NCBI GenBank assembly: GCA_041651155.1
Contig: JBAZJU010000003.1
Coordinates: 19,789-83,788 of the forward strand
DNA: 64,000 nucleotides
Source: Patescibacteria group bacterium
GTDB lineage: Bacteria; Patescibacteriota; Patescibacteriia; CAIXNZ01
Reading direction: 5' to 3'
Below the pieces are notes generated by a model. The model was not told where the DNA came from. It did not search any database and saw nothing but the letters and a program-made list of their open reading frames with translations. Within the stretch, counting starts at the first letter, position 1, and the number at the start of each line of letters is the position of its first letter. Below, piece by piece: positions 3,064 through 54,699 of this stretch. The position numbers and the translations under genes were made by a program.

Positions 3064-3183
3064 AAACGGACAAATTTATATCATAGGCCACTTTAGTGGC
3101 CGTGCGTGAATTCTATAATATTTCTAGGCCGTTTTTTTGCTCAGCTATTGACAATATTTTAATTATATGCTATCATGTCCTTG

Positions 3184-3474
3184 AGATGCCTAGATGGATT
3201 TAATAGGCTTACCCTAGATAAAACTTACTATCCTAAGAAAATTTAGGGGAAAAATCTCTCTATTTAAAAGTAGCAAATTGGATAGAATTTGCGAAATATG
3301 ACCGGGTTGGACTCAAGAGTGGAGATTGAGTCTATTAAAAAAACCCAATAAACCATGCCTTGCATAGCGAGGCGTCCGGACGTAGGAATAATCCGCCTAT
3401 AAAGGACAGAATATACCACTCATATTCTGTGGTTTTTATAAAAATTACGGCCTGCAATCAAGCGGGCCTTTTTT
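3184..3474 (+). ncRNA. Candidate small/structured RNA: promoter TTGACA(3148-3153)-17-TATCAT(3171-3176), no credible ORF, two intrinsic terminators (3405-3437 and 3449-3474)
   Basis: Promoter and terminators read from sequence. Only very short ORFs without an RBS. Internal hairpins (GGACTCAAGAGTGGAGATTGAGTC; palindromic CGTCCGGACG). GC higher than flanks. Confidence 0.3.
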
Positions 3475-3518
3475 AATTGAAATAGAAAAAGACGGCTTTT
3501 TAGGGCCGTCTTATTGTT

Positions 3519-8880: not shown

Positions 8881-8964
8881 TTTTTACCTCCTTAATGGAT
8901 TTTAGTTAAAGTTATCAGAAATGATAGTTTTTGTCCACGCAGCTCTTCACAATAGCTATATAAA

Positions 8965-9472
8965 ATTCAAAGGCCCCGTTAAAAATGCATTCAAGCATTT
9001 TGTAACGGGGCCGAGTGTGGAGAGAAAACCTTCTTTGTCGTAGCCGCCAGCGTATAAAAAGGCGTCCTCATCTACATGCAATAGCATGTTCGCCTAAGAT
9101 TCTCTGGTAGCTTTTTTGCGGGCATGCAGATTATGACGTTCCGGTACCGTATGAACATCTCGTTTCGGCGCTCCTAGGTTGCGCCATAGTCACGGGCCGG
9201 ATTGAAGCGTGATTGTGCTTGAACGCCCATTAGAACATCGGATTTTTTAGACGTTCGGCACATTTTCGACGGTCGCCCATGGTGCGTCCGTTTGAATCTC
9301 AAACTTTCGATCATCAGGATTCGGCCTTCCATGATAGGCCTTTCAATCGTATTTTTCGAGAATTTCGAAGTCAATTGGCCGGATCGCGGCAGTTTTTACA
9401 AATCCCGCGTTCCGGAAGTTTTTTCCCGCATAAAATCGGAAGGTTTTAAGAACTCGATTCTCCACACTTTAT
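8965..9472 (-). ncRNA. Candidate approx 450-500 nt structured ncRNA (minus strand): consensus promoter, 5'/3' closing helix, strong terminator hairpin, GC-rich, no ORF
   Basis: Minus-strand promoter TTGACA (rc of 9503-9508), 17-nt spacer, TATGAT (rc of 9480-9485). 5' GUGUGGAGA pairs with 3' UCUCCACAC (plus coordinates 9458-9467 and 9015-9024). A 17-bp compound hairpin at 8972-9012 is followed by a U-rich tract. GC about 50% versus about 35% in flanks. Confidence 0.35.
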
Positions 9473-9527
9473 GATTAACATCATAGCATATCTATAAGAT
9501 TTTGTCAAGACTATGGCGGTTTTTGAT

Positions 9528-12681: not shown

Positions 12682-13197
12682 ATGGATCCCTATATTCAAT
12701 TAGCGCAACAAACTATTTTTAATCATTTTGGCGTAAAGCAAGCCGATTTAGAATCTTTGAATTTGCCTAAAGAAATGTTAACCAAAAAAGCAGGAGTTTT
12801 TGTGACTTTATACCGCCATGGCAAATTGCGCGGTTGTATTGGCACATTAGAGCCAACTAAAAAAAATATTGCAGAGGAAATTAAACAAAACGCAATTTGG
12901 TCAGCTACAGAAGATCCCCGCTTTGAACCTGTAATAGCCAAAGAATTAGAGGATTTAAATATTTCTGTTGATGTTTTAAATCCCTCGGTTGCAATTAAGG
13001 ATATAAAAGAATTAAACCCTAAAAAATATGGCGTTATTGTGGAAGCAGGCAGAAAAAAAGGGTTGCTTTTGCCTGATTTGGAAGGAGTTGAAACAGTTGA
13101 CGAGCAAATAAGTATTGCTTGCGAAAAAGCCGGCATTGATCCTGCAAAAGAAAATTTTTTAGTATATAAATTTACAGTTACCAGACATGAAGCCTAA
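12682..13197 (+). CDS. AMMECR1-domain protein (AmmeMemoRadiSam system protein A)
   Basis: Hallmark LRGCIG motif plus surrounding AMMECR1-like sequence. The ATG at 12682 is preferred over the upstream TTG. Confidence 0.75.
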   Translation: MDPYIQLAQQTIFNHFGVKQADLESLNLPKEMLTKKAGVFVTLYRHGKLRGCIGTLEPTKKNIAEEIKQNAIWSATEDPRFEPVIAKELEDLNISVDVLNPSVAIKDIKELNPKKYGVIVEAGRKKGLLLPDLEGVETVDEQISIACEKAGIDPAKENFLVYKFTVTRHEA

Positions 13198-15094
13198 AAT
13201 AGCTCAAATAATACCATTTGTCCGCTTAACAAGAAGCTTGAATTTTTTTGACTATATTATCCCGGAGGAGCTACGGTCAGAAATAAAAGTCGGACAATTA
13301 GTAGAAATCCCCTTTAGAAACAAGATGGTTAAAGGGGTTATTTTAGGTTTAGCAGAAAGTTCAAAGTATGAAAGTATAAAGTTAAAACAGATTTCTAAAA
13401 TAGTTGAACCTATTCCCCTTTTGGCCACTTGGCAAATTACTTTAATTAAAGATTTATCGCAATATTATTTTGTTTCCATGGCTACTATTTTGAAAATGCT
13501 GATTCCTGAAATTCCTAAAAAAGTAAGATTAAGTCGTAAGAAAATTTTACAAGAATTAAATTTTTTATCTGCGCCAAAATCAGAAATTGCGCTTGAACAA
13601 TTTTATAATTCTGCCAAACCAATTTTGTTACGCTGTTATAAATTTGAGGATAAAATTGGAGCTTATCTTGCTTTGATTAAAAAGGTTTTAAAACAAGATA
13701 AGCAGATTGTAATTATTGCGCCGACCCTAAACGAACTAAATAAAATTTATCAATATTTGGGTGATTTTAAAGAAGAAGTTTCCGTGTTTTTAAATGATTT
13801 GCCAAAAAACAAATATTATTATGAATGGCTGAGGATTAAAAATAGCCAGGCAAAAATTATTTTAGGCACGCGCAGCGCAATTTTTGCGCCATTTAAAAAT
13901 TTAGACTTAATTATTATTGACGAAGAAGATAATGAAAATCACAAGCAGGAAGAGCCTAATCCGCGTTATAATGTAAAAACAATTGCCTTAAAATTACAGA
14001 AACTAATTATAGCAAAAGTCATTTTTACTGCCAGAACCCCATCAATGGCTAGTTTGCATAACGTCGCTCTTAAAGAATGGCAATTTTATGAAATCAATAA
14101 GCCAAAAGACTGGCCAAAAATAAAAATAATAGACCGACAGATTGAATTTAAAAAAGGTAATTATTCTATATTTAGCGAGGAACTTTTAAAATGCATTGAG
14201 TATAATCTAAAGCGCGCTCAAAGAATATTTTTATTTTTAAATCGTAAAGGTTTAGCCACGGTTTTGTCCTGCAAAGATTGCGGATATTTGGCAAACTGCC
14301 CCACATGCAAACTGCCTTTGACTTGCCAGGTTAGCAAAGAATTAGTCTGCCATCACTGCAATTATAAACAAGATATTTTTCTATTTTGTCCGCAGTGCAA
14401 AAGCCCAAATATAAAAATTACTGGGACTGGCACAGCCAAGGTGGAATTAGAGATAAGTAAATTGTTTCCCCAAGCCAGAGTTTTAAAACTAGACATTGAC
14501 AGCCCTTTGAATAATAAAAAGATTGCTGATTATGATATTATTATTGGCACCCAATATGCCTTTGATTATTTAAATTGGAAGGAAATAAATTTAGCCTGCG
14601 CTTTAAATGCAGATACGTTGCTTTATTTGCCAGATTATCGCAGTGCTGAAAAAACATTTAATCTTTTAGCTGGACTGGCAATATCTATGGCAGATCCCAA
14701 AAAAGAATTTTTGGTTCAGACTTTCTCAGCAGATAATTATATTTTTTATGACTTGCCTGCGCTTGATTATAAAACATTTTATAAAAAAGAAATTACTGAA
14801 CGCCAAGATTTACATTATCCGCCTGTGGCAAAGCTAGTAAAATTAATTTACCAAAGCATTGAATTTAACGGCGGCCAAGCAGAAATAAATAAAGTCTATA
14901 GAGAATTAGTTTCAAAAGTTGATATAAATAAAGTTATTATTAATCCCCCGCTTTTAGCTTATACTCAGCAGGTTCGCGGCCGTTTTCGCTGGCAAATTAT
15001 TATTAAGCTATTAGAGCTGGATCTGAAATTAGATTTTTTGAATGATTTGCCTGAGGATGTGATAATTGATGTTGAACCGGAAAATCTGCTATAA
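13187..15094 (+). CDS. PriA-like primosomal/replication-restart helicase homolog with CxxC zinc-binding insert but degenerate Walker A and DEAH motifs
   Basis: 635 aa. Paired CxxC motifs (CKDCGYLANCPTCK, CHHCNY, CPQCK) are typical of PriA. No GxxGxGKT P-loop found. DEAH replaced by DEEDNE. Confidence 0.5.
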   Translation: MKPKIAQIIPFVRLTRSLNFFDYIIPEELRSEIKVGQLVEIPFRNKMVKGVILGLAESSKYESIKLKQISKIVEPIPLLATWQITLIKDLSQYYFVSMATILKMLIPEIPKKVRLSRKKILQELNFLSAPKSEIALEQFYNSAKPILLRCYKFEDKIGAYLALIKKVLKQDKQIVIIAPTLNELNKIYQYLGDFKEEVSVFLNDLPKNKYYYEWLRIKNSQAKIILGTRSAIFAPFKNLDLIIIDEEDNENHKQEEPNPRYNVKTIALKLQKLIIAKVIFTARTPSMASLHNVALKEWQFYEINKPKDWPKIKIIDRQIEFKKGNYSIFSEELLKCIEYNLKRAQRIFLFLNRKGLATVLSCKDCGYLANCPTCKLPLTCQVSKELVCHHCNYKQDIFLFCPQCKSPNIKITGTGTAKVELEISKLFPQARVLKLDIDSPLNNKKIADYDIIIGTQYAFDYLNWKEINLACALNADTLLYLPDYRSAEKTFNLLAGLAISMADPKKEFLVQTFSADNYIFYDLPALDYKTFYKKEITERQDLHYPPVAKLVKLIYQSIEFNGGQAEINKVYRELVSKVDINKVIINPPLLAYTQQVRGRFRWQIIIKLLELDLKLDFLNDLPEDVIIDVEPENLL

Positions 15095-20354: not shown

Positions 20355-21992
20355 CTAATTTTTTTGTCTAAATATGGCTGCACAGAGCATTAAATAGCCT
20401 ATTCCCAAGGGATGGTTTAAATACGGGCTGAACATGTTTACAGTCATCAAGACAATTAAGCCAATCAGGAAGCCAATTCGTATAAGGCTCGGCCTTGAAT
20501 TAATTTCATTTATATTTGAATTTATGACAGTTTGTTTAAGGCCGAGCCTTGAATGAATGCCCAAATAAAGTATTTGTCCTATTAAAAACAAATAAACAAA
20601 CAAACCAATAAACCCAATTTCCGTTACCGTATCCAAATACCCCCATTCAAAAGTGTAAGTTGTGTACCAGCCCTCGGGATTTGAATCATTTTTAATGCGC
20701 GGATCATCTGATTTGTATGTTAAACTAGTGCCAAAGCCAGTGCCTAAAAGAGGCGCTTTTTTAATTTGTTCAATTAAAACCGGCAATTGGTTCCAACGGC
20801 TAGATACTCCTGCTTCACCAAAAAAGGCAGTAAAGCGTGTTTTAAGTAAAGAAAATGCTAATTCTGAGGAAGGTTTGGGGATTGGGAAATTGGCGATAGA
20901 GAAAAACAACAAGATGTTGATAATCAGGGAAGAAAGAATAATTCCCATAATTTGTGCCAATTTTTTGAGCCGTAATTTTTCTTTAAAAATCAAATAAGCA
21001 AAGAGAGCAATAAATCCGACAATGGCACTGAGCCAAAAGGTGCGGGAAAAAGAGATTAAGATTGAGGTTTCAAGTATGATTATCATAATAATGGACCAGA
21101 CAAATTGTTTTCTCGGAACCGAAGAAGCGATTGGCCCCGAAGGGGTAAACGAATCGCTTCTTCGGTGGAGGAGTAATAAAATTAGGGAAAAAATAATAAA
21201 AATTCCAATCAAGCTCCATATCTGCGACTGGAAAAATATTCTAAAAAAATTAGCCCCGGCATAAGTAATCTCCCCTACCCTGGTATCGCGAATCCAGTGG
21301 TAAAGCAGATCCGATGTATTTAGAAATCCATGAGAAAAGAAGTATAAGGTTACAAATACTTTTAAGGAGACATAAGTTATTGAGGCGATTAAAATTTTTA
21401 GAAAATTAATAACTTGCTTTTCATTTTTAAAAACTTCCAGGAAAACAAAAAAGAGACCGAAATACAGATAACCGTTAAAATCAAAAAAAGTGTTTGCCAG
21501 ACCATTATGGTGTAATAGTCCATTGATAAACCCAATCCCGAGGAAGGCAATTAATAAAATAAAGTTTTGGATTAGGCGATCCTTTTTTATCTTATTTATA
21601 CCCCACTTTCTTGTCCGCCATAGCGTAAGCGACGGCGGAAGTGGGCAAGTTTTAGGCCTGCTAAAGCAGGGTATAAAACAATATTTTAATAACCAGACCA
21701 AAAAGACAATTAAGAATATTGCTAGACGAATCGGCGCTTTAAAGCCAGGTAATTGCAAGTAGAACAAATACCCATAAGAACCTATCATTAGTTCAATTAA
21801 AGCAATATAAAGACCATATTCTAGCTTATACAAGGTAAATAAAAGAACTGCGATTGAGATAAGAATTAAGAATATAGAAGATAGAAATGCTGATTTAAAG
21901 CTGATTAAGGAAAGTAATTCAATGAAAAAAATGGCTAAAATTAGCTTTATAATATTTATATTTAAGATTTTTTCAGGTGTATCTATTGACAT
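20355..21992 (-). CDS. Large polytopic membrane protein (possibly O-antigen ligase/polymerase-like)
   Basis: 545 aa with at least 10 predicted hydrophobic helices and a large loop. No catalytic motif confidently recognised. Confidence 0.4.
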   Translation of the reverse strand: MSIDTPEKILNINIIKLILAIFFIELLSLISFKSAFLSSIFLILISIAVLLFTLYKLEYGLYIALIELMIGSYGYLFYLQLPGFKAPIRLAIFLIVFLVWLLKYCFIPCFSRPKTCPLPPSLTLWRTRKWGINKIKKDRLIQNFILLIAFLGIGFINGLLHHNGLANTFFDFNGYLYFGLFFVFLEVFKNEKQVINFLKILIASITYVSLKVFVTLYFFSHGFLNTSDLLYHWIRDTRVGEITYAGANFFRIFFQSQIWSLIGIFIIFSLILLLLHRRSDSFTPSGPIASSVPRKQFVWSIIMIIILETSILISFSRTFWLSAIVGFIALFAYLIFKEKLRLKKLAQIMGIILSSLIINILLFFSIANFPIPKPSSELAFSLLKTRFTAFFGEAGVSSRWNQLPVLIEQIKKAPLLGTGFGTSLTYKSDDPRIKNDSNPEGWYTTYTFEWGYLDTVTEIGFIGLFVYLFLIGQILYLGIHSRLGLKQTVINSNINEINSRPSLIRIGFLIGLIVLMTVNMFSPYLNHPLGIGYLMLCAAIFRQKN

Positions 21993-22075
21993 TTTTATTG
22001 AAATGTGTTATTATAACTGCATTAGTCTAGGTTCATTTCGGAACCTGGCAGATATAATCTTTGAAAGGAAAGAAA

Positions 22076-22489
22076 ATGAAAAAGTTAATTTGTTTGGTAT
22101 TGGGCATGATCGTCCTTTTGCTAACCACCACCGCTTGCGCAAGCATGAACAAAAGCGTTTTCGAACCTGGCATCAGCATTGCTGCAACACCTGCTTTTCC
22201 TCAAGACGTTTCTTCTCCGACCTGGGCAGAACAAGCCGGCAAGGTAGTGACCACAAATCACTCCCCCAAAATAGTAGAAGTGGAAATTCGCTTCTATCCA
22301 TTTGGCCTTTCACAAAGAGGTCTTGTAATTGATAGATACTTTCTGCATTCTAACTGTTTCGGTGCTTATTTTGGTACAGATGGCGATTATTCCGCCACAA
22401 TCATCGAAGTGAATGGGTCTGTGACTCCGTTCGTCAAGAATTTTCGCCTCATAAAAGGTGAAAAGATTGAAATAACTTATGGTCAATAA
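22076..22489 (+). CDS. Small lipoprotein/secreted protein
   Basis: Signal peptide with lipobox-like LLLTTTACAS. RBS GAAAGGAAAG before the ATG at 22076. Followed by a terminator at 22517-22549. Confidence 0.5.
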   Translation: MKKLICLVLGMIVLLLTTTACASMNKSVFEPGISIAATPAFPQDVSSPTWAEQAGKVVTTNHSPKIVEVEIRFYPFGLSQRGLVIDRYFLHSNCFGAYFGTDGDYSATIIEVNGSVTPFVKNFRLIKGEKIEITYGQ

Positions 22490-22516: not shown

Positions 22517-22549
22517 ACACCCTGTCAATTCTGGCGGGGTGTTTTTTTG
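22517..22549 (+). terminator. Intrinsic terminator (ACACCCTG...CGGGGTGT + T7); a near-identical copy lies at 23150-23186
   Basis: Hairpin plus T-tract read directly. The 25-nt hairpin sequence is duplicated about 630 bp downstream. Confidence 0.55.
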
Positions 22550-22557
22550 TGTATGTA

Positions 22558-23186
22558 TTGACATTTTTTTAAATATATGATAGTGTAATAATGCGGTTGG
22601 GAGGGCTGTATATACAGTTCGTTGAAGCGCATAACGCTAATATCCTACTCCAATCCATTTCAAATTGGTTTGGAAAAGTCTGCAATCACGCAGTCTTAAG
22701 ATATAAGCGTGCATCACCTGGCTGCATTAAAATTTTTTTCCCAGAAACTCGAAGGTTTGCGGCTTTTCCTGAGAGTACTTATTGGGGAAAAGGCATCAAT
22801 TCTGTAAAGAAAGAAGATGTCAAAGAGCCGATTTATTTATCATTTAACCTTGCTATTCTGGCAGGGTTTTTTATTTTTAAATTTTTGACTGGGGTTTGGG
22901 TTTGATTTTGAAAATTTAATTAAACTATTGACAAATTAATTATATTTTGTTAAGATATTTTTATGAGATTAAGGTAGAGCAACGAAAGAATTCCTAAATA
23001 AGGATCCAGTTTAGGAATTGTTTCAAATAATGGTGCCTTAACTATGGGCTCAGCTCTTTGCTGAGTGCAAACTGGTTAGCACACTCGATGTTCCTTGACC
23101 TTATCAAGTTCTGCATTGCATTATTATGCCTTAATCTCTGGCGAATATTCCACCCTGTCAATTCTGGCAGGGTGTTTTCTTTTTTA
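22558..23186 (+). ncRNA. Candidate noncoding transcription unit with two promoters (TTGACA at 22558 and 22928, each with an extended -10 TGtTAAGAT-type element), ending at the terminator 23150-23186
   Basis: No ORF with an RBS (the 104-aa ORF 22591-22905 lacks an RBS and has odd composition). Strong internal hairpins such as AATTCCTAAA...TTTAGGAATT. GC higher than the genome. Confidence 0.25.
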
Positions 23187-23204
23187 AATTTTTAGGTACG
23201 ATAC

Positions 23205-23585
23205 TTGACATTTTTATAATTTTTGTTAAGCTATATTTGTGTTAGGGAAGAGAGTCCTAAGTAAAAGGAAAACAGTATCGCCGAAAGTATGCTGCTGAAT
23301 GGATTTTTGGGGGTGATGGCAAAAGTCCCTCACAATTCAGGTAGGAAAGAACACGAAATCTTACAACTAGAAAGTAATGTTATTCTCGGCAAAGGGTACC
23401 CTTTGTTATCCTACCTTCCCTAACCGCTAATAGTCAGTTGAGGTGGAGAATGCCTTTGACACGGAGTGTGGAGGCGAGGGACGCCCATTCCTCAAGTAAG
23501 GGCTCAATCTCGGCTGGAAGTCCAGTTGCCTTACTCATCTCAACTGATTTGCTAATTACCCAGTCAACTGACCGGGTTTTTTATT
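23205..23585 (+). ncRNA. Candidate approx 360-nt structured ncRNA (TTGACA 23205-23210, extended -10 TGtTAAGCT, terminator 23559-23584); alternatively carries a weak 44-codon ORF (23289-23423)
   Basis: Promoter and terminator delimit a unit with no ORF of 60 aa or more. GC about 45%. Long-range complementarity GTCCCTC (about 23322) with GAGGGAC (about 23485). Confidence 0.3.
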
Positions 23586-23667
23586 TAAAGTAATTCATAA
23601 CTGCTTTTTATAATAGCAATATTTTAGGTAATTTAAAAGGGTATTCTGAAGCGAATACCCTTATTTA

Positions 23668-24651
23668 TTAAATAGCCATTTGGAATAATTCCTGATATTT
23701 TTTCAGGAATTCCTTGGCATGATTGCTGGCTCTGGCTGAACTTTCTCTGAGCATTTGGCGCAGGTCTTTTTCAGTCAGCTTGAATTCCCTTTCCTTTTCT
23801 CGGTATGGAGTGAAATATTGCCAAAGTGAAGTAGTCAGGATTTCTTTGCATTGTGTGCAGCTTAATGTTCCGGCCTGGCACTGCTGGTGGATTTTTTCCT
23901 GGCTGGCCATGTCCTTAATTTTGGGCAAAACATAATAAGCGTAAACGCAGCACTTTTTTGGATTGCCAGGATAATTAAGGCCCAATCGCGTGTCATCTGT
24001 CGGCATTTTGAAAACTTTTTTTCTGATCAATTCAAGACCATCAGTTGGACAGATAAAATTTTGGCGCTGACTGCTGGTTCTTTTCCCATCAAAGCCAGGT
24101 ATGGGCGGGACTGGCGGAATGATCACCTGAGGAAAAATAAACTCGCTCACATCCAGCTTTAAATTATGGCACAGATTACGGATAATCTTGTGCGTTAATT
24201 CCACATTGCCAGGAATACTTGAGGTTACAAATGGCGCCTCAAAAATGAGTACGTCTGCAAGTTCCTGGAGCGGATAGCTTAGAATTCCGGCATTGATTAT
24301 TTCTTTGTCCTGCTTTTTCCTTTTGGATACAATGGCTTTTTGCAAAATGTGAACAGGTGTTGCCTGTAAAAGCATTTGAAACATTTGGGCATGCTCAGGC
24401 ACCATGGATTGGGCAAAGATTGTGCTTTGCTCATAGTTTAAACCAGCGCACAGCCAGGATTTGAATATTGTTAATGTATCCTGGATTAAATTATCTGCTT
24501 TGGCAGTCGTCAGGGCTAAACTATTGTAGATGCCGAAAAAACAATCGTATCTTTTTTCCAGCCCAAGCCATTGGTCTATGACCATTAAATGTTTCAAATG
24601 GATAAAGCCAGTTGGCCTCATGCCAGAGAGAAATCTGAATTTTTCGCTCAT
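23668..24651 (-). CDS. Tryptophanyl-tRNA synthetase homolog of the [4Fe-4S]-cluster subfamily with degenerate HIGH (HLKH) and KMSKS (KRTSS) motifs
   Basis: N-terminus FLSGMRPTGFIHLKHL aligns to the Thermotoga-type TrpRS ILSGMRPTGKLHIGHL. The C-terminal C-x22-C-x6-C-x2-C cysteine motif matches the Fe-S TrpRS subfamily. The region around GKRTSS...IRKKVFKMPTDD aligns to GKKMSKS...VRKKVMKMVTD. Confidence 0.65.
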   Translation of the reverse strand: MSEKFRFLSGMRPTGFIHLKHLMVIDQWLGLEKRYDCFFGIYNSLALTTAKADNLIQDTLTIFKSWLCAGLNYEQSTIFAQSMVPEHAQMFQMLLQATPVHILQKAIVSKRKKQDKEIINAGILSYPLQELADVLIFEAPFVTSSIPGNVELTHKIIRNLCHNLKLDVSEFIFPQVIIPPVPPIPGFDGKRTSSQRQNFICPTDGLELIRKKVFKMPTDDTRLGLNYPGNPKKCCVYAYYVLPKIKDMASQEKIHQQCQAGTLSCTQCKEILTTSLWQYFTPYREKEREFKLTEKDLRQMLRESSARASNHAKEFLKKYQELFQMAI

Positions 24652-24751
24652 GATTGCCTCCTTGTCAAATAACCAATTTAATATCTAAATTTAGCGCATA
24701 ATATTGATTTTGTCAAGCTAAACCAATTTGTCGCATCAGGTAAATAACCAC

Positions 24752-24779
24752 TTGACTTTTTACTAAACTATGCTATAGT
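24752..24779 (+). promoter_or_regulatory. Promoter TTGACT-16-TATAGT for the rSAM-tmk-rSAM operon; RBS AAAGGAGAAAAATA-ATG
   Basis: Read directly. Divergent from the TrpRS-like gene, whose own minus-strand TTGACA-17-TAAATT promoter is in the same 167-bp intergenic region. Confidence 0.5.
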
Positions 24780-24818
24780 TTAGTATTCGCTCATTGAAAA
24801 TTTGAAAGGAGAAAAATA

Positions 24819-25817
24819 ATGGAAAGAAAAGTCATTAAACTTGATTTTAATGTTACTAATAGGTGCAATTTTCGTTGCAAACACTGCTGTTTTCGTTCTG
24901 GCGAAGTTAATTTGACAGAACTGCCTTTTGCCATGATTCAATCTGTTTTGACTGAATTCAAGGAATTGGGCGGTCGCAGAATTGACATCACTGGCGGTGA
25001 AGCCACAATGCGCCAAGATTGTTTTCAGATCGTTGAGCTCTGCAAATATCTGGGGTTTAAAACTGAATTAGTGACAAATGGCTCTCTGCTTGATGAAGAA
25101 AAATTGAAGCGCTACAAAGACCTCGGTCTTGATGGCATAGCGATCAGCTTGGATGGATCCAAGTACAAATTCTACAGCCAAATCCGGCCTGTGGCAGAAA
25201 AGATTTACAAAAAAATCCTTAAAAACATTGAACTGGCCGCGAGGTCTGGCTTTTACACCAAAGTCAATACGGTTGTCTTTGATTCCAATCTGCATGATCT
25301 GACGGCAATCACCCGTTTGGCCGTTGTCTTGGGCGCGCGCGAACAGGGCTTCTATTATTTCAGTCCCATTGGCCGAGGTGATTGTTTCACTGCCAATATC
25401 GCTGATCCGCTCAAATGGATGCAGGTGATCAGGCAACTACTGATTGAATTTTACAATAAGATCGAAATCTCCATGGAGACGCCGATCATTGAGTCAGAAT
25501 TCACCAGAAAAATCGATACTCATTGCTACATGGAAAGACCATGGCATTTGCAGATTTTGCCTGATGGCAATGTCTTCCCTTGCGCCATTATGTGCGCGCA
25601 TCAAAAACCATTGGCCAATCTCCATGAGCAAAGTTTGCGGCAAATCTGGGAAAACGAGACACAACTCCAGAAATATTTTGAGCAACAAACTCAGCCCTTA
25701 TTTAAGGACTGGGGTGGCTGCGTCAATTATCCGCAACTGCGAGGTAAAATTGCGAGCAACAAATATTCATTTGTCTGCTTGTGCAAAAAATTCAATCTCA
25801 AGGAATTAACCAGATGA
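24819..25817 (+). CDS. Radical SAM enzyme with C-terminal SPASM-type auxiliary-cluster domain
   Basis: CNFRCKHC (Cx3Cx2C) near the N-terminus. C-terminal Cys-rich SPASM-like region (CYMERP...PCAIMC...GGCVNY...CLC). Confidence 0.7.
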   Translation: MERKVIKLDFNVTNRCNFRCKHCCFRSGEVNLTELPFAMIQSVLTEFKELGGRRIDITGGEATMRQDCFQIVELCKYLGFKTELVTNGSLLDEEKLKRYKDLGLDGIAISLDGSKYKFYSQIRPVAEKIYKKILKNIELAARSGFYTKVNTVVFDSNLHDLTAITRLAVVLGAREQGFYYFSPIGRGDCFTANIADPLKWMQVIRQLLIEFYNKIEISMETPIIESEFTRKIDTHCYMERPWHLQILPDGNVFPCAIMCAHQKPLANLHEQSLRQIWENETQLQKYFEQQTQPLFKDWGGCVNYPQLRGKIASNKYSFVCLCKKFNLKELTR

Positions 25818-26398
25818 AAAGAACAAGAGGAAAACTAATTATTTTTGAAGGCATAAATGCTGCCGGCAAGACGTCTCTGATTCGACTTATTTTAAAGTTA
25901 CAGCCCGATTGGCTTTATTGCAAAGGGCAAGGTGACAAAAATACTTCGTGGGGACGTTTTGCCCGGCGTCATCCTTCAAGCCCCCTGCTTTTAATGGAAT
26001 TGTTAATCACCAATCTGTTAATTGTCAGGCCAGCTTTGAAAACCGGCAAGATTGTCCTGCATGATCGTTATTTTTTTTCAATCATGGCTTTTTATACCGC
26101 GCAAAAATGGTATAACCGGCTATTGGGAAAAATATTCCTGAAATTACTGGTTTTTCCTGACCAGATTTTCCTCGTGGACGTAAACACTGAGGAAGCGCTC
26201 AGGCGCTTAAGAAATGAAGAGCCGAATCAATTCCATCAGCTCTATCTGGCCAATCCCCAAATGATTAATCAGGAAAGAGGTTATTTGTATCAATCCCTGG
26301 AAAATTATCAAAACGTAATTAACATCTCTGGGAAAGATTCAAATAATTTGGCCTTAACAATTTCCGAGAAGATTGGAGGACCAATCAATGACAGCTGA
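25815..26398 (+). CDS. Thymidylate kinase (Tmk)-family P-loop nucleoside-monophosphate kinase
   Basis: The P-loop in LIIFEGINAAGKTS matches Tmk FIVIEGLEGAGKTT. DRY(F) motif (Tmk DRH/DRY). LID-like RRLRNEE. Start codon overlaps the rSAM stop (ATGA) and the stop overlaps the next rSAM start, indicating translational coupling. Confidence 0.6.
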
Positions 26399-27461
26399 AA
26401 ATCAAGAAATTAAGCTTAAAAATATCGGCTGGGGTTTTGGCATCTGCAATATGAAATGTCGCACCTGTTATTCCGCGGCTTGTAAAAAAGCCAGAGAATA
26501 CAGTTTTCTTGAATTAAAGATCGCCGCTGACAAACTTTGTCATGTGATACGATCTATTAATTACGGCACTGGCGAATTCATATTTAATCCTCATGTCACA
26601 AATCTCGCCGAGTATATTGCCTCATGCTATCCCCGCATTGAACAGGCCGTGACCAGCAATGGCACAACCATTATTCTGCTGGGACATGAGCGGCTCAAGC
26701 GCTTGTTTCATGACATAGACATTTCCATTGATTTTCCCAATCCGGAAAAACACAATGAAATGAGGCGCCATCCCAAGGCCTGGCAATGGTCCATGCAGTC
26801 CCTGCAAATTTGCCGGGAGGCCCGCATTGAGACCTCAATCGTCACCTGCATTACCAGCAAAACAAGAGACGAAGATATTATGGATTTTCTGGAGCTGGCC
26901 AGTAAATATGGCACTTCTTGGCGCTGTAGCTGGTTTAGGCAAAAAGGTCGTGGCAAATCCGATCTGCGCATTTTGGCGCCAAGATTCTGGCAGATTATAA
27001 AACTGCTGAGTAAGCATGCGATCTTTGAAGATTTGTCTGAACCAATACTGCAAGGTATGTTTGGCCAAGAAATTGAACGCCCGGGCTGTAATTGCGGTCG
27101 GGCTTCCTGCCGCATTCAGTCCAATGGTCTGGTCGCGCCTTGTACCTTTTTGGGCGGCCCTGAATGGTCAGCTGGTTCTTTGCTGGAACAATCAGTGGAA
27201 GAAATTTACCAGAGTCAGCCCTTTGCCAAGTTAAGAGCAAGGGATGTGCCCTTTTGCCATGATTGCCGCTACTATCCCAAATGCCAAGGCGGCTGTGCTT
27301 CCAGAGCTGTTTTACATTCTGGCGGACTAGATCTCCCTGATGATTTTTGCCCGATTTACAACAAGGTTGAAGTCGACATCAATCCAGGAGATATAAAAGT
27401 GATTAAGACAAATAAAGTTCACAGTGAATATTTGTGTACGACAATCGTACACCCTAAATAA
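26388..27461 (+). CDS. Second radical SAM enzyme with SPASM-type domain
   Basis: GICNMKCRTC (Cx3Cx2C). C-terminal CNCGRASC...PCTFLGG...CHDCRYYPKCQGGC SPASM-like cysteines. RBS GGAGGA before the ATG at 26388. Confidence 0.7.
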   Translation: MTAENQEIKLKNIGWGFGICNMKCRTCYSAACKKAREYSFLELKIAADKLCHVIRSINYGTGEFIFNPHVTNLAEYIASCYPRIEQAVTSNGTTIILLGHERLKRLFHDIDISIDFPNPEKHNEMRRHPKAWQWSMQSLQICREARIETSIVTCITSKTRDEDIMDFLELASKYGTSWRCSWFRQKGRGKSDLRILAPRFWQIIKLLSKHAIFEDLSEPILQGMFGQEIERPGCNCGRASCRIQSNGLVAPCTFLGGPEWSAGSLLEQSVEEIYQSQPFAKLRARDVPFCHDCRYYPKCQGGCASRAVLHSGGLDLPDDFCPIYNKVEVDINPGDIKVIKTNKVHSEYLCTTIVHPK

Positions 27462-27495
27462 AAGAAAAAAGAGTCCCTCGTGGGACTCTTTTATA
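27462..27495. terminator. Bidirectional intrinsic terminator (A-tract-GAGTCCCTCGTGGGACTC-TTTTAT) between the rSAM operon (+) and the MBL/cNMP gene (-)
   Basis: Perfect 8-bp stem flanked by A and T tracts. Confidence 0.55.
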
Positions 27496-27505
27496 ATTGT
27501 ATTAT

Positions 27506-29647
27506 TTATTTTACTTGTTCACTTTTACGCTGCGTAGCCATAATTATCAGTCGACAGCGCACATGCGGTGAATTTTTTATCAGGTTGTCAAAATCCTTAC
27601 GGTTTAATTTCAGGGTTCTGACTCGATCAATGGCAACGACATTGGCTGTTCTAATGCCATCTTGTAAAAGTGCCATTTCCCCAAAGTATTGTCCCGGGAA
27701 AAGAGTGGCTATTTCGCGAACGCCGCCGTTTTCCTCTAACATGACTTTGGCTTTGCCTTCGGTAATGATGTAAAAATCATCGCCTCTTTCGCCCTGAGTT
27801 ACGATATAAGTGTCTGGTTCATGAAGTTCTTCCTGAATCTCCTGGGAGATTTGAATATAGGATGGGGCATCCAGACCCCTGAAAAGGGCAATGTCCATGA
27901 TAATGGGCCGATACTTATGTGTTTTTGCCAATCTCTTAGCCAAAAGTGGTTCTTTGAGTATCCGGTTGGAAATTTCCTTGGGAATTGCTAAGACCCGTAA
28001 AGGACTTCTGGCTTTAATAGTGGCTGTGCAAGGGCAATTTTTTGTGACGGAAAGTTCTCCAAAGAAATCGCCGCTAGACAGCTGGGTGAATTCTTCATTG
28101 TCAATGATGACCAAGGCAGTTCCACCTAAAATGACATAAAACTCTTTGCCCGGGCTACCTTGTTCCAAAATTACGCTGCCAGCTGGGAATTCTTCGATCT
28201 TTCCGCTAGACAAAAGCACGGAAATCCATTGCGGTTCTATGCCGTAGAACAATGGCACTCGAAATAGCGTATTCATGGCTTCCAAGGCCGTGTCCTGGGG
28301 GATAAGTTCCCAAATTTGACCTGTCTTGGGCGTGCAAAATTGCTGGCTGAGCTCAGGTGTTAATTTGGCGCTGTGAGTCAGGACAAGCCGTTTTTTTACC
28401 TCGCTGGGTAATTGAGCAAGTTCGTCTGTCAGCGGATGGATTGTGCCTCCACCGCCATCAAGAAACATCAGATCGCAATCTATTGTGGGAATGCCTTGGA
28501 CGCAAGCCCTAGTTTGTTCATCGATGATTCCCTTTTCTGCCAGTTCCTGAATTTTCTTGCCCCAGGCAGTATCGCCTGAATAGACAATGCTTTTACCTTT
28601 GACTGTGACTTTGAAGCCGATCGTTGGAATCGGGTGTACCGTATTCCAGAAATCGAATTCGGCGCCGTACCAACTGAAAGGTTCATTGACTTTTACTTCA
28701 ATCAGCTTAACGAATTGCTGAACCACATCAACCGGCAGATCGAGAATGTAAGCGGTTTTCAGGAGAAAGCCAGCGAAAACGGTTTTGGTTGTCATAATGC
28801 TGGCCATTTTGGAATTGACCACCATATCCAGGATGGAATTGTGGTCGTCGTGAATGTGGGTAATCAGGAATGCCTCGATTTCGTGAGGATTAATGCCAAA
28901 TTCCCTGCAATGCTCTTTCAGCCAGCTTACACCATCAACAATGATGGGCAGGCCATTTATCCAGATAATCACCCCAGAAGTGTAGTCGCTGGGATCAAAA
29001 CCCGACGTGCATTGGCTCAGGGCCATGGCGCCCAGGATTGATCTCTTGGGCAAATTTTCCGGAGTGATAAGCGGTAAAGGCGGTGTTTGAGGATTGTTCA
29101 GGTTGATGTCAGCGAAATATCCTTCGTCCTGATCTGTGATCTGGAAAACATTTTCCGCGCGCTTGGTAACTAGCATACCGTCAATTTCCACTTTGCCTTT
29201 TGCATCAAACGGTATGAAATTAATCATGTCGTCGAGCGTGGCAATTGAACTGTTTTTGTTATGAAGCGCCAGATAATCAGATATCTTGGAAATGCGCTCA
29301 TATTCTTCATCGCTGATACCGAACTGATCAGCCTCCTGCTTATTGATTCCCAGCAAGGTCAGGCGCAAAATGTTCTTGATCCTTTCCAGCTGTTTTTTTT
29401 CGCCGATCACGGCCAGTTTTTCACCTTTGAAAAATCCGCCGTAGACGAAAAGAAAATCATAAAGTGGAAATTCCAGTGCTGCCTGGTTGATTCCATGCCG
29501 GAAAAAAGTCGAGGGCAGGACAATCCTGTTTGGGACTGTTTTTCCCATCTTTTTGAGAAGTTTGACCACCTCTGAAGGGCAGCCAAGCATAATTCTCCAG
29601 TCATAAATCTGACAACCGGGCATTAATTCAAACAATTTTTGTTCCAT
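27506..29647 (-). CDS. Multidomain protein: N-terminal domain of unknown function, central metallo-beta-lactamase-fold hydrolase (HxHxDH), two C-terminal cyclic-nucleotide-binding (CAP_ED) domains
   Basis: 713 aa. FLITHIHDDHNS carries the HxHxDH MBL metal-binding motif, which resembles the class II cNMP phosphodiesterase HxHLDH. Two cNMP-binding signatures (FFGELSV...TATIKA; GQYFGEMALL...RTANVVA). Confidence 0.65.
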   Translation of the reverse strand: MEQKLFELMPGCQIYDWRIMLGCPSEVVKLLKKMGKTVPNRIVLPSTFFRHGINQAALEFPLYDFLFVYGGFFKGEKLAVIGEKKQLERIKNILRLTLLGINKQEADQFGISDEEYERISKISDYLALHNKNSSIATLDDMINFIPFDAKGKVEIDGMLVTKRAENVFQITDQDEGYFADINLNNPQTPPLPLITPENLPKRSILGAMALSQCTSGFDPSDYTSGVIIWINGLPIIVDGVSWLKEHCREFGINPHEIEAFLITHIHDDHNSILDMVVNSKMASIMTTKTVFAGFLLKTAYILDLPVDVVQQFVKLIEVKVNEPFSWYGAEFDFWNTVHPIPTIGFKVTVKGKSIVYSGDTAWGKKIQELAEKGIIDEQTRACVQGIPTIDCDLMFLDGGGGTIHPLTDELAQLPSEVKKRLVLTHSAKLTPELSQQFCTPKTGQIWELIPQDTALEAMNTLFRVPLFYGIEPQWISVLLSSGKIEEFPAGSVILEQGSPGKEFYVILGGTALVIIDNEEFTQLSSGDFFGELSVTKNCPCTATIKARSPLRVLAIPKEISNRILKEPLLAKRLAKTHKYRPIIMDIALFRGLDAPSYIQISQEIQEELHEPDTYIVTQGERGDDFYIITEGKAKVMLEENGGVREIATLFPGQYFGEMALLQDGIRTANVVAIDRVRTLKLNRKDFDNLIKNSPHVRCRLIIMATQRKSEQVK

Positions 29648-29753: not shown

Positions 29754-30623
29754 TTAAATTTTTGACTGCGGTTTGGGTTTGATTTTGAATATTTGTGATA
29801 ACCAGGCTAAGCTTAAACTGAAGCAACTTAACAACTTTACAACCAAACAACTTAATAATCCCACATGTTTTTTAAAATAAATTGCCATTCCCCTATTAAA
29901 TCGTTTCTGTTTTTCTAAGCTCATTTGCTGGGCAAAACTTTTAGCTTCGTGATGAATAATTTTTGTTTTTGGCGTATAAATAATTTTCAAGCCTAAATCC
30001 TGAATTTTCATGCATAAATCCAGATCCTCCCACCAGATAAAATAATCAGGATCAAACCCGCCAATTTCTTTAATTACTCCTGTTCTGGCAAACATAAAAG
30101 CTCCCATGATCTGTTTAACTTCCTGTTCTTTTTCATAAATAAAATTTTTGGCTAAATATCTATTTAAACATTTGGTTTGAAAAAAATGATGGAGTTTTAA
30201 AAGAATTAAAAGTTGGTCGCAGAGATTAGGATTATTTTTAATATTTTTTTGTAATGTGCCATCAGGATAAATTAACTGGCAAGTTGAGAGAGCAATTTTT
30301 TCATCCTGTGCCATGAGATCAAACATTACTTTAAAACTATTTTCTATTAATTCAGTATCTGGATTTAAAAATAATACATATTTTCCTTGGGTGTGTTCTA
30401 AGGCCAAATTATTTGCATTGGCAAAACCCAGGTTTTCGTTGGAGGCAATTAAATTAACTTGAGGAAATTGTGATGCCACCATTAACGCTGAGGCATCTTT
30501 GGAAGCATTATCAACCACAAAAACCTCAAATTCTAAACCTTGTGTTTTATCAATGATTGATTGTAAACACTTTCTGAGCAAGTCCTTAACATTCCAAGAG
30601 ACGATGATGATTGATAGTTGCAT
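29754..30623 (-). CDS. Family 2 glycosyltransferase
   Basis: LSIIIVSWNVKD...VVDNASKD...YVLFLNPD (DxD-type) are classic GT2 motifs. Start moved to MQLSIIIV (30623) because the upstream extension is encoded by a repeat element. Confidence 0.65.
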   Translation of the reverse strand: MQLSIIIVSWNVKDLLRKCLQSIIDKTQGLEFEVFVVDNASKDASALMVASQFPQVNLIASNENLGFANANNLALEHTQGKYVLFLNPDTELIENSFKVMFDLMAQDEKIALSTCQLIYPDGTLQKNIKNNPNLCDQLLILLKLHHFFQTKCLNRYLAKNFIYEKEQEVKQIMGAFMFARTGVIKEIGGFDPDYFIWWEDLDLCMKIQDLGLKIIYTPKTKIIHHEAKSFAQQMSLEKQKRFNRGMAIYFKKHVGLLSCLVVKLLSCFSLSLAWLSQIFKIKPKPQSKI

Positions 30624-36061: not shown

Positions 36062-36847
36062 TTATTTTTTAGCTTTTTTACTAGTCTTAACGGCTTTTTT
36101 GGCTTTAGGCTTTTTAATCTTGGCTTTATTTTCTTCTTCTTTTTCTTCCGGAGCTTCTGGCGTTTCGGAAATTAAAAGATTAAAATGATCTATAAGCATT
36201 TTTGCGCAAAAATTAATTGCTTCCCGCGGGCTGATTGTGCCATCTGTTTCCAAAGTTAATGTTAACTTGTCAAAATTAGTAATTTGTCCGACACGGGTAT
36301 TTTCAACTTTAAAGCCGACATCTTTTATTGGCGTGAAGATTGAATCAATGGCAATAGTCCCGACAGATAAATTCTCCTTAGATCGATTTTCTGTTGGTTC
36401 AAAACCACGTCCTTTTTCCACAATAATCTCCATATTAAATTCAGTCCCCTTGTCAGTAATAGTGGCAATTTTCAAATCAGGATTTATAATTTCAACATTG
36501 GCATCTTTAGCAATATCTCCGGCCAAAACATCTCCCATGCCCTTTTTCACCACTTTCAAAACAACCGGTTCATCGCTATATAATTTAAGTCTTAGTAATT
36601 TTACATTTAGCACAATCTGCAATATATCTTCATAGATTCCTGTTAAGGCGGAAAATTCATGCGGTGCGCCTTTTATTTTTATAGCAGTAGCAGCGGCGCC
36701 TGGCAAAGATGATAATAATACCCGTCTTAAGGCATTGCCCAGGGTTGTGCCATAACCATGATATAGCGGTTCCACTGTTAGAATTGCGAGATTAGAATTT
36801 TTCTCTTCCTTTAATTCTATTTTTGACGGTAAGAAAATATTTTCCAT
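36062..36847 (-). CDS. rpoA: DNA-directed RNA polymerase alpha subunit, N-terminal domain only (no alpha-CTD; Lys-rich tail instead)
   Basis: 261 aa. The alpha NTD is recognisable (ILTVEPLYHGYGTTLGNALRRVLLSSLPGAA). The protein ends in EEKEEENKAKIKKPKAKKAVKTSKKAKK rather than the approx 80-aa DNA/activator-binding CTD. Confidence 0.8.
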   Translation of the reverse strand: MENIFLPSKIELKEEKNSNLAILTVEPLYHGYGTTLGNALRRVLLSSLPGAAATAIKIKGAPHEFSALTGIYEDILQIVLNVKLLRLKLYSDEPVVLKVVKKGMGDVLAGDIAKDANVEIINPDLKIATITDKGTEFNMEIIVEKGRGFEPTENRSKENLSVGTIAIDSIFTPIKDVGFKVENTRVGQITNFDKLTLTLETDGTISPREAINFCAKMLIDHFNLLISETPEAPEEKEEENKAKIKKPKAKKAVKTSKKAKK

Positions 36848-52896: not shown

Positions 52897-53050
52897 AGAG
52901 AATATAATTTATACCCTGCTTTAGCAGGTAATTTAGCCCACTTCCGCAGTCGCTTACGCTATGGCGGACAAGAAAGTGGGGTATAAATTAAATAATTTTA
53001 TAATCATACTTTATCAGTTTTTAAACATCAAATCAAATTTAAAAGGACTC

Positions 53051-53281
53051 TCAGTTGAGAGCCCTTGTGCGTTTAAACAATCGCTTTGGCCAGAGGAGTG
53101 ACTTTTTGAAATTCCGTTTGATGGAAAATTTTATGTCCTCCAATCTGGGCGGATCGTAGTACTTGTAATTTTTGTGGCGAATCACGAGTGCCAGATATTC
53201 ACTGGCCACGTAAACTACCAGGCAAATCAGGGCGAAAAACAGATAAGCCTTGATTGCCCAGATCAAACCTCCAATAAACAT
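53051..53281 (-). CDS. Small membrane protein (76 aa)
   Basis: One or two hydrophobic helices. Basic C-terminus. Confidence 0.3.
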   Translation of the reverse strand: MFIGGLIWAIKAYLFFALICLVVYVASEYLALVIRHKNYKYYDPPRLEDIKFSIKRNFKKSLLWPKRLFKRTRALN

Positions 53282-53331
53282 CTCGACCTCCTTTTGGGTT
53301 AAAAAAATTCATTAAGTCTATAGCATTTTGG

Positions 53332-53550
53332 TCATTTTTTGATAGCGCCAAGTCTTCTCAAATCTTCTAAGGTTGCCACCTCAGGGTTTAAACCGAAGCG
53401 CACACATTGTAGTTTAAAAATGCTAGTTGTGTTTGGATCCAGCTTGTTTTGGATGCAACCCAACATTAAAAAAGAAGTTTTTTGAGGATCAAGCCCTCTT
53501 TTTTGACATTCCTCTTTAAAATTTCCGTCATATAAGCTACTTGAAATCAT
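53332..53550 (-). CDS. Small hypothetical protein (72 aa from internal start MISSSLYDG...)
   Basis: RBS GGAGGGAG before the internal ATG. The longer track ORF would overlap the upstream gene by 79 nt. Confidence 0.3.
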   Translation of the reverse strand: MISSSLYDGNFKEECQKRGLDPQKTSFLMLGCIQNKLDPNTTSIFKLQCVRFGLNPEVATLEDLRRLGAIKK

Positions 53551-53561
53551 GCTCCCTCCTT

Positions 53562-53801
53562 TTAAAAAAGTTTTGCAATCAGTTCCCTCAGGACGTTTTT
53601 TAGATACGGAGCAGTTATGACTGTAACTACTACTGGCCATAATGAGTTTAGTTCATAACCTCTGATTGCCTCGTAAATCCCGAAGATGGCCATGTAGATT
53701 ATTAAGCCGAAAATTATGGCTAAGTAATCCATCAATGCCAATGCAGTTTTGTCCTGTTTGGGCAAAATTGATTCCTCGTCAATAAACGTTTTTTCAGCCA
53801 T
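53562..53801 (-). CDS. Small membrane protein (79 aa)
   Basis: Two hydrophobic helices. RBS GAGGAGG upstream. Confidence 0.3.
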   Translation of the reverse strand: MAEKTFIDEESILPKQDKTALALMDYLAIIFGLIIYMAIFGIYEAIRGYELNSLWPVVVTVITAPYLKNVLRELIAKLF

Positions 53802-53818
53802 TTCTACCTCCTCGTTTT

Positions 53819-53980: not shown

Positions 53981-54040
53981 AATTTTGTCTCCTTTAGTTT
54001 TGATTCATGGAGTTTAGCATATAAATTTCCTTCTGTCAAC

Positions 54041-54082
54041 CCTACAAAACTACAAATCTTATACAAATTTTACAAAAAGTTA
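54041..54082. repeat. Second copy of the TACAAA A-tract element (CCTACAAAACTACAAATCTTATACAAATTTTACAAAAAGTTA)
   Basis: See 45051-45092. Confidence 0.4.
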
Positions 54083-54228: not shown

Positions 54229-54247
54229 ATTTTTGCGTATTTTACTG

Positions 54248-54686: not shown

Positions 54687-54699
54687 GGTAGTTGCGTGT

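Follow-up and report, generated by a model that had tools for sequence, protein, structure and literature searches.

Three tandem candidate small-RNA genes separated by duplicated terminator modules in a Patescibacteria genome

Organization of the array

The DNA analysed here (the window, 64,000 nt in full) is a chromosomal part of contig JBAZJU010000003.1 of an uncultured Patescibacteria group bacterium, the counterpart of which is the 126.8-kb contig k141_2110476 of ENA ERZ27247363. The window contains the housekeeping genes for ClpB, PriA, AlaRS, MutS, MutL, Fmt and RpoA. The subject of this study is a gap of 1,178 nt, located between a lipoprotein-like gene (22076–22489, + strand) and a convergent tryptophanyl-tRNA synthetase-like (TrpRS-like) gene (23668–24651, − strand) that heads a cluster with two radical SAM (rSAM)/SPASM genes. 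The gap contains three units (A, B and C) arranged head to tail on the + strand, each comprising a promoter, a structured body of 188–320 nt and a copy of a terminator. The original prediction, made from the letters of the window, described a tandem stack of promoter- and terminator-bounded units without convincing open reading frames (ORFs), most plausibly small-RNA (sRNA) genes, and this description is supported by the present analysis. The elements of the array are as follows, starting at its 5′ end.

22517–22549, + strand: T1, intrinsic terminator of the lipoprotein-like gene and module copy 1; stem 22517–22542 of 11 bp with 6 GC pairs, followed by a T7 run
22558–22586, + strand: P1, TTGACA-17-TAGTGT with extended −10 TG, exact match to the genome pattern; predicted start ~22591–22593
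22593–22845, + strand: body of unit A, ~250 nt, predicted structured RNA
22846–22880, + strand: T2, terminator of unit A, diverged module copy; hairpin 22846–22868 and T-run
22928–22956, + strand: P2, TTGACA-17-TAAGAT with extended −10 TG, exact match to the genome pattern; predicted start ~22963
22963–23150, + strand: body of unit B, ~188 nt
23151–23186, + strand: T3, terminator of unit B, near-identical to T1; hairpin 23151–23174 and T-run
23205–23232, + strand: P3, TTGACA-16-TAAGCT with extended −10 TG, read directly from the sequence and in agreement with the genome pattern but for its 16-nt spacer; predicted start ~23239
23239–23557, + strand: body of unit C, ~320 nt, two domains
23558–23586, + strand: T4, diverged fourth module copy that ends unit C; hairpin of 7–8 bp with one mismatch, then T6-A-T3

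From this layout of promoters, terminators and bodies it follows that the three units are consecutive, with predicted RNAs of ~285 nt (A), ~220 nt (B) and ~345 nt (C). The left part of the gap had been read as a unit of ~590 nt with a nested unit of 220 nt. The sequence features behind that reading are all present, but its delimitation is replaced by consecutive units A and B because terminator T2 sits between them. The bodies have a guanine plus cytosine content of 39–46%, and are thus richer than the window (36.1%), as had been predicted; that of the junctions between the bodies is 17%. The array is not mis-assembled, since an independent assembly of another run (L005, Logan SRR8542065) shows 100% identity from T1 to T3, units A and B and terminator T2 included, and over half of C.

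The promoter pattern TTGACA-N14-TGnTAnnnT was counted across the window. With up to one mismatch there are 28 matches, compared with 1.98 ± 1.45 in shuffled sequences (14-fold enrichment), and 15 matches are exact where ~0.09 are expected from base composition. Because 10 of these 15 are located directly 5′ of real genes in the correct orientation, the pattern is the working promoter consensus of the organism, and P1, P2 and P3 are credible as predicted promoters. The terminators of the original prediction are indeed each followed by a promoter within 10–45 nt (P1 is 16 nt past the stem of T1, and P3 31 nt past that of T3), and the third similar promoter reported at 22928 is P2. The upstream part of P1 is similar to the lipoprotein promoter (74% over 47 nt), and P3 is similar to P2 (75% of 52 nt). 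The likeness of the promoters was formerly taken as a sign of duplication. This can no longer be upheld; it is largely a genome-wide consensus (28 matches in the window against 2 expected), so that the mutual resemblance of P1–P3, mostly of this origin to judge by the pattern, says little about duplication.

It is the terminators that are repeated. Two near-identical hairpins with T-tracts had been recognized, at 22517–22542 and 23151–23174; both are confirmed as T1 and T3 (91% identity over 34 nt), but the count was incomplete, with T2 (22846) overlooked and T4 (23558–23586) now added. The 20-nt core of T1 and T3 occurs twice in the window, at these two positions only, against 0.01 expected. 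All four modules, together with the single module at the same locus of the closest relative (L003, see below), align mutually at 72–86% identity (z = 5.4–12.9 relative to shuffled sequences). In gapped alignments with the L003 module the identities are 83% for T1 (z = 12.6), 86% for T2 (z = 8.6) and 85% for T4 (z = 5.8), while T3 matches the L003 module and its downstream flank at 87.5% over 48 nt. Direct reading of the sequence indicates that the T2 stem is preserved through a double change of C-G to A-T. The terminator copies are truly duplicated, and the duplicated part comprises the module with its immediate 3′ flank (TTTATTTAAATTTTT...), and not the RNA bodies. The modules are in register with the promoters on the same strand, forming the pairs P1/T2, P2/T3 and P3/T4. 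A sigma-70-type promoter upstream and a GC-rich hairpin with U-run downstream, the combination used as a criterion for sRNA genes, are present in A, B and C alike.

Folding, coding potential and similarity of the units

The bodies were folded with the terminators removed. The fold z-scores are −3.49 for A, −5.88 for B and −3.43 for C (−4.42 for the 3′ domain of C), and those of the reverse complements are −1.54, −3.35 and −0.47, respectively; with the terminator included the values are −4.10 for A and −7.75 for B. Coding controls (24 pieces of 220 nt) give −0.32 ± 0.90 with a minimum of −1.89, and one true small gene of the genome gives +0.40. The strong hairpins of the original prediction are found both by folding and by an inverted-repeat search.

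Every unit or domain is predicted to be closed by a long-range helix (an inverted repeat) of 11–14 bp. In unit B the closing helix is formed by 12 bp between 22965–22976 and 23127–23138, including one U·G pair, and encloses a multi-helix junction. The 5′ domain of unit C is closed by pairing of 23241–23251 with 23414–23424, and its 3′ domain by pairing of 23434–23445 with 23536–23547, with one G·U pair. The lone imperfection in the helix of B, and likewise that in the helix of the 3′ domain of C, can still pair on the + strand (as U·G and G·U, respectively), where the − strand would have an A·C mismatch. Unit B has a possible alternative pairing, in which ATAATGGTGCCTTAA and ATTATTATGCCTTAA are each able to pair with the 5′ arm. 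A CsrB-like sponge based upon GGA motifs was considered and rejected; GGA is enriched in unit C only (26/kb compared with 10/kb), where it is mostly paired and not in loops.

No ORF led by a Shine–Dalgarno (SD) sequence is present in units A–C. Genuine small genes of this genome have an AAGGAGG-type SD located 6–9 nt before the start. The earlier statement that the units contain no ORF of at least 45 aa preceded by a ribosome-binding site stands with respect to SD-led frames, yet an ATG ORF of 104 aa without SD does exist in unit A. Further features of the gap and its flanks are the following.

22076–22489, + strand: lipoprotein-like gene, 137 aa, upstream of the array, with its own promoter P0 at 21986–22014
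22591–22905, + strand: ATG ORF of 104 aa in unit A, judged spurious; no SD, starts close to the predicted transcription start and reads through T2
22877–22917, − strand: remnant of 41 nt, corresponding to the last 12 codons and stop of the family 2 (GT2) glycosyltransferase gene (29754–29794)
23289–23423, + strand: ORF of 44 codons in unit C, not considered a gene; no SD and no Pfam match
23637–23662, strand not assigned: hairpin terminator of the convergent TrpRS-like gene, kept in L003

The hydrophobic tail of the 104-aa ORF is the translated T2 terminator (hairpin and T-run). In 5.8 billion protein clusters its sole match is itself, and a Pfam scan gives none. Real genes have a score of 0.288 ± 0.109 per codon for codon usage and this ORF only 0.047 (~2 standard deviations lower), in a test that is weakly discriminating at such short ORF length. 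The 44-codon ORF exists as reported, and has no match at E ≤ 1e-3 in 1.84 billion representative proteins. It had been put forward as a possible precursor peptide for the neighbouring rSAM/SPASM enzymes. This idea is disfavoured because the rSAM cluster occurs without unit C in relatives (L003, L001 and L013), and the ORF has neither an SD nor a homologue among those representatives. The numbering of the NCBI accessions for Wzy (MFA5188347) and the TrpRS-like protein (MFA5188349) implies one protein slot between them, for the lipoprotein.

Homology of the region to a protein, which would point to a decayed pseudogene, was named beforehand as the evidence that would overturn the prediction. None was found in blastx, Pfam or ORF searches. 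Among the ten longest stop-free pieces of at least 38 aa in six frames Pfam has nothing at E ≤ 0.05 (two non-significant matches, E 0.086 and 0.63), and blastx against the proteome of the window recovers only 12 residues of the GT2 end (22877–22917). A decayed pseudogene is therefore rejected on the lack of residual protein similarity in the window-proteome blastx, Pfam and ORF searches, the 12-codon GT2 end excepted. A more specific version, in which unit A is a decayed copy of the lipoprotein gene, is not adopted either; the promoter and terminator are alike, but the bodies align only marginally (z = 2.2, with 8 of 200 shuffles as good). The lipoprotein-like protein itself has no match in a Pfam scan.

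The Rfam/Infernal scan proposed with the original prediction left the region without a family match. With Rfam release 15 no match anywhere in the window attains the gathering score, and a scan of the full 64 kb gives none with E ≤ 0.5 inside the region; within the region at E ≤ 10 the best match has 25.2 bits against a threshold of 40. Genes for tRNA and tmRNA are likewise absent from the window. Neither the 50,697 phage records nor the 72,556 plasmid records searched contain a match to the 1.06-kb region, and 22-mers taken from units B and C have no exact occurrence in IMG/VR. Three IMG/VR matches to a terminator 18-mer were dismissed as chance, lying in GC-rich contexts without a hairpin or T-run. 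Complementarity of the region to genes, sought with blastn, is unremarkable (at best 85% over 26 nt, within the coding region of mutL, E 0.015). The candidate sRNA genes are new, and outside the known RNA families.

Comparison of the bodies with one another contradicts the proposal of a locally amplified small-RNA gene family, as they share no detectable similarity and only the terminator modules are duplicated. Smith–Waterman alignment (200 shuffles) gives z = 0.57 for A–B, 0.34 for A–C and 1.72 for B–C, and blastn among the units with a word size of 7 finds only terminator and promoter matches. The bodies are single-copy, as neither the 64-kb window nor ~150 kb of DNA from relatives contains a second copy of any of them. 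A motif, GAGTGTGGAG, had been said to recur here and in two further non-coding RNA candidates at 9.0 and 3.3 kb. It occurs exactly at 23464 and, in the 9.0-kb candidate, at 9013, with one mismatch at 9460 (− strand) and 42026; the 3.3-kb candidate lacks it, and the link to other candidates is weak.

Relatives and related islands

Relatives were sought with the TrpRS-like protein in genome and metagenome collections, and only L001 and L003/L006 were found; searching for the identical TrpRS-like protein, or for members of the rSAM and GT2 protein clusters, led either to sequences that stop short of the gap or to different neighbours. Public data contain few representatives of the lineage. Closest to the window is the JGI contig Ga0209777_10000025 (L003/L006, also L004), in which both the TrpRS-like protein and the orthologue of the lipoprotein-like protein are 83% identical and MutS is 94% identical. 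The gene order in L003/L004 is the same, but the gap measures only 172 nt and accommodates a single terminator module with a short flank, followed by the convergent terminator. In the L003 gap, the left half aligns with T1 and its upstream flank, the same module aligns with T3 and its downstream flank, and the right part aligns with the downstream flank of T4. It follows from these alignments that the window has the order module–unit–module–unit–module–unit–module relative to L003. Because the L003 gap has a single module and none of the units, the array is strain-specific and accessory as judged by this comparison. L003 is the one ingroup comparison, with which acquisition of the units by the window lineage and their loss from L003 are both compatible. 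By either route the units would be dispensable within the clade of the window and L003.

The five-gene cluster beginning with the TrpRS-like gene is kept in L001 (a Parcubacteria metagenome-assembled genome (MAG), 71% identity) and in L013 (a 455-kb contig), where other genes adjoin the TrpRS-like gene (response regulator, HD, metallo-beta-lactamase (MBL)-fold and GyrA). The lipoprotein/TrpRS-like junction is thus a synteny breakpoint of the window and L003 clade, because the neighbours in L001 and L013 differ. To judge from these loci, the conserved rSAM cluster is independent of unit C and its 44-aa ORF. The cluster (23668–29647) is conserved in four Patescibacteria lineages with different flanks (the window, L003, L001 and L013), and consists of a divergent TrpRS paralogue (scoring 139 bits where the cut-off of TIGR00233 is 176.75), an rSAM/SPASM gene, a thymidylate-kinase-like gene, a second rSAM/SPASM gene and a gene for a 713-aa protein. 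The latter has two Pfam cyclic-nucleotide (cNMP)-binding stretches, a sub-threshold match to the beta-lactamase/MBL fold and a precomputed match to the anti-Pycsar protein Apyc1. A precursor-peptide gene is not evident in the cluster.

The GT2 gene-end remnant is located directly after T2, with 95% identity over 41 nt (E 9e-13) and 12 of 12 residues in blastx. The gap of L003 has a version that is more diverged. The remnant suggests that the terminator of the lipoprotein gene once also served a convergent GT2 paralogue, later deleted.

Duplicated terminators around an inserted mini-unit are also found at 52.9–54.7 kb and 58.5–60.2 kb of the window, and in L007, L008 and L010. In the island between MutS and MutL (52896–54700, − strand) near-identical terminators (54686–54664 and 54227–54206) surround a promoter (54568), an SD and an ORF of 80 aa, after which a second promoter (54039) leads to four small SD-led ORFs and a terminator (53066–53043). 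The island between DUF4015 and MutS (58531–60158, − strand) starts with a promoter (60009) and three paralogous ORFs of ~57 aa with the motif LTxEQLRKLxFxPLSKE, located upstream of two 49-nt modules that are 98% identical (59157–59109 and 58770–58722). These modules flank a consensus promoter (59091) and an ORF-free body of ~330 nt, the fold z-score of which is only −1.84.

In L007, L008 and L010 (MutS 92–94% identical) the island modules are 93–100% conserved across genomes and duplicated within them, while the bodies between the modules are mostly unrelated and the MutS–MutL island has different small ORFs. L007 has one module where the window has two, and the ORF-free unit of the DUF4015–MutS island is absent. 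In L010 the sequence before its single module is the 3′ end (80 nt) of that same ORF-free unit. The arrangement in the window looks like two alternative alleles stacked at a shared module. A tandem duplication of 269 nt (86% identical; 12880–13148 and 13826–14094) in the MutS–MutL island of L008 contains a small ORF cassette on the − strand, and is accompanied by duplicated promoter/5′-untranslated-region (52 nt) and terminator (28 nt) modules.

In the whole 64 kb, at least six structured regions are led by a promoter and free of ORFs, none of them recognizable by Rfam. The 9.0-kb candidate (8955–9508, − strand) has an exact consensus promoter (9508–9480) and an ORF-free RNA of ~510 nt with a fold z-score of −6.28, a closing long-range helix formed by GUGUGGAGAA and UUCUCUCCACAC, and a terminal hairpin (GGCCCCGUUA...UAACGGGGCC). 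It has no Rfam match, and is followed by an SD-led ORF of ~81 aa (8886–8640). The 3′ strand of its closing helix is complementary to the motif GAGUGUGGAG previously noted at 9013. The 3.3-kb candidate (3148–3512, + strand) has an exact consensus promoter (3148–3176), an ORF-free body of ~265 nt (fold z-score −4.59) and two terminator-like hairpins (3449–3468 and 3489–3512), again with no Rfam match. It is locally similar to the ORF-free unit of the third island, between DUF4015 and MutS (Smith–Waterman z = 3.8, with 0 of 200 shuffles as good). With regard to transcription in this organism, the RpoA homologue (36062–36847, − strand) has only 261 aa, of which Pfam reports only the insert and dimerization domains at E ≤ 1e-4, and not the alpha C-terminal domain; if its absence is real, the organism would lack recognition of UP elements.

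Nature and origin of the units

We consider it probable that A, B and C are three autonomous, strain-specific sRNA genes, and that they are examples of a type of stackable mini-unit found in this lineage. Each unit would be transcribed from its match to the consensus sigma-70 promoter of the genome with extended −10, and Rho-independent termination would take place at the copy of the common terminator module that belongs to that unit. The transcripts would encode no protein, and would fold compactly into multi-helix structures with long-range closing helices. As a default guess, their cellular role would be that of trans-acting regulatory or protein-binding RNAs. The mini-units, each with promoter, body and terminator, may have been stacked through recombination at the terminator module, by Campbell-type integration of a circular piece or by unequal crossover between copies or alleles of the module, each addition leaving one extra module. 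We infer that a single crossover at the module is the simplest mechanism that leaves an insert together with a duplicated module. The units of this array appear to be RNA-only, while the mini-units of the other islands mostly encode small proteins.

Several observations weigh against this interpretation. The transcription of A–C and their exact 5′ and 3′ ends are inferred from sequence, thermodynamic z-scores alone are imperfect evidence for a functional RNA, and T4 is a weak terminator. No search returned a homologue of any body, so that the predicted structures are based upon thermodynamics and strand asymmetry, and not upon covariation or conservation. Absence from the sister lineage is compatible with dispensable or neutral units, the GT2 3′ remnant is debris that speaks of a history of rearrangement, and the stacking is read from the architecture, with no recombinase among the window proteins scanned.

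The main rival, which we regard as unlikely, is that the region is inert debris at a rearrangement breakpoint, the bodies being leftovers of deleted or imported DNA between duplicated junctions and any transcripts noise. The location at a synteny breakpoint, the 41-nt GT2 gene end, the absence of the units from the sister lineage and the lack of homologues in any collection searched all fit such a view. It does not readily account for three consensus promoters on one strand, each in register with a terminator, where ~0.09 exact matches are expected per window, nor for fold z-scores that are strand-asymmetric and far beyond those of the coding controls. Residual protein similarity is not seen in six frames (window-proteome blastx and Pfam), the stem of T2 is preserved by a double change, and a reduced genome keeps 1 kb of array unchanged in two independent samples. 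It is quite improbable that the units are instead mobile or site-specifically inserted cassettes, either MITE-like (miniature inverted-repeat transposable elements) or integron-like through the terminator hairpin, and not home-grown sRNA genes. The insertions are flanked by direct repeats of a 34–49-nt hairpin module, bodies or domains are bounded by 11–14-bp inverted repeats, and variable cassettes lie between conserved modules in several relatives, all of which a mobile origin would explain. Integron cassette arrays and clusters of attC sites lacking integrases (CALINs) likewise have co-oriented short unrelated cassettes with related hairpin repeats between them, variable content and conserved boundaries, but the repeats of the array are perfect hairpins of 24–26 nt with T-runs, genuine terminators, and the cassettes have their own promoters. 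An attC-type R′/R″ core motif is absent at the modules; the array has one incidental GTTRRRY (inside P3) and one RYYYAAC, which are not arranged as in attC (R″ RYYYAAC, R′ GTTRRRY), and IntI, or any other integrase or transposase, is missing among the window proteins scanned. MITEs such as the Correia elements of Neisseria are also small (100–350 nt), bounded by inverted repeats, structured, intergenic and able to supply promoters or terminators. The array differs in having no dispersed body copies (none in the window or in ~150 kb of relatives' DNA), no short target-site duplications, and inverted-repeat mismatches that only one strand can accommodate as G·U pairs, an indication of selection acting on the RNA. 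The rejection of a MITE or other transposable element is based upon bodies that are single-copy in the window and at the loci of relatives examined, and is provisional in that it covers 64 kb of the genome.

Small proteins are highly improbable as the products of the units, whether a leaderless 104-aa protein in A or peptides of 44–51 aa in C, including the 44-aa candidate rSAM/SPASM precursor. The ORFs are present, the ATG of the 104-aa frame lies near the predicted transcription start so that leaderless translation is conceivable, one gene caller predicts it, rSAM/SPASM genes adjoin and other islands of the genome do contain small-protein cassettes. Yet the frames have no SD where real small genes have AAGGAGG, the 104-aa and 51-aa ORFs run through terminator hairpins into T-runs, and homologues are absent from the 5.8 billion clusters (104 aa) and 1.84 billion representatives (44 aa). 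In addition, the codon usage of the 104-aa ORF is ~2 standard deviations under that of real genes, the rSAM cluster is kept without unit C in L003, L001 and L013, and the NCBI annotation has no protein at the units. Finally, that the units are cis-regulatory leaders (riboswitch, T-box or attenuator) of a downstream gene is close to excluded by gene orientation. Structured RNAs with terminators, possible alternative pairings (ATAATGGTGCCTTAA and ATTATTATGCCTTAA in unit B) and an adjacent tRNA-synthetase-like gene might suggest such a function, but none of the units has a + strand gene behind it, the nearest one downstream (23668–24651) being convergent, each unit ends in a full terminator with a new promoter after T2 and T3, and there is no Rfam match. 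For the small-protein, precursor-peptide, cis-leader and MITE/integron readings alike, a feature that defines membership of the class was thus found to be missing.

Tandem 'sibling' sRNA genes such as LhrC1-4, PrrF1/2 and OmrA/B offer a parallel to the candidate sRNA genes. As at those loci, several sRNA genes would lie head to tail in one intergenic region with their own promoters and intrinsic terminators. Sibling sRNAs are however paralogues with similar bodies and seed regions, whereas the array consists of unrelated bodies, with duplication confined to the terminator module. New sRNAs specific to a species are known from rearranged intergenic regions (Raghavan et al. 2015, PMC4350180). 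The array resembles these in its position at a non-syntenic intergenic rearrangement junction, its restriction to one lineage, its sigma-70 promoters and its intrinsic terminators. The published cases are single sRNAs of enteric bacteria with experimental transcripts, while here there are three stacked predicted units with repeated modules in a Patescibacteria MAG. A literature search found no description of sRNA arrays in Patescibacteria, and no mention of the run SRR8542065.

A more far-reaching, and distinctly unlikely, possibility is that the terminator modules of this lineage act as the recombination sites of an integrase-free cassette system, in which self-contained mini-genes, each with a promoter, a small RNA or small protein and a terminator, are excised, exchanged between strains and stacked behind conserved genes. 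If so, hypervariable accessory islands would result and the three RNAs would be their cargo.

To our knowledge almost nothing is known of the small RNAs of the Patescibacteria (candidate phyla radiation, CPR). These bacteria have tiny genomes, depend upon hosts and have little space for spare DNA. If transcribed, A, B and C would be three new strain-specific structured RNAs, and the three or more further candidates in the same 64 kb suggest an unexpectedly rich accessory RNA repertoire. For the adjacent rSAM/TrpRS-like cluster, the 44-aa 'precursor peptide' is removed as a false lead. The pattern of duplicated terminators and mini-genes provides a concrete, testable picture of how small genes may be gained and exchanged in such genomes.

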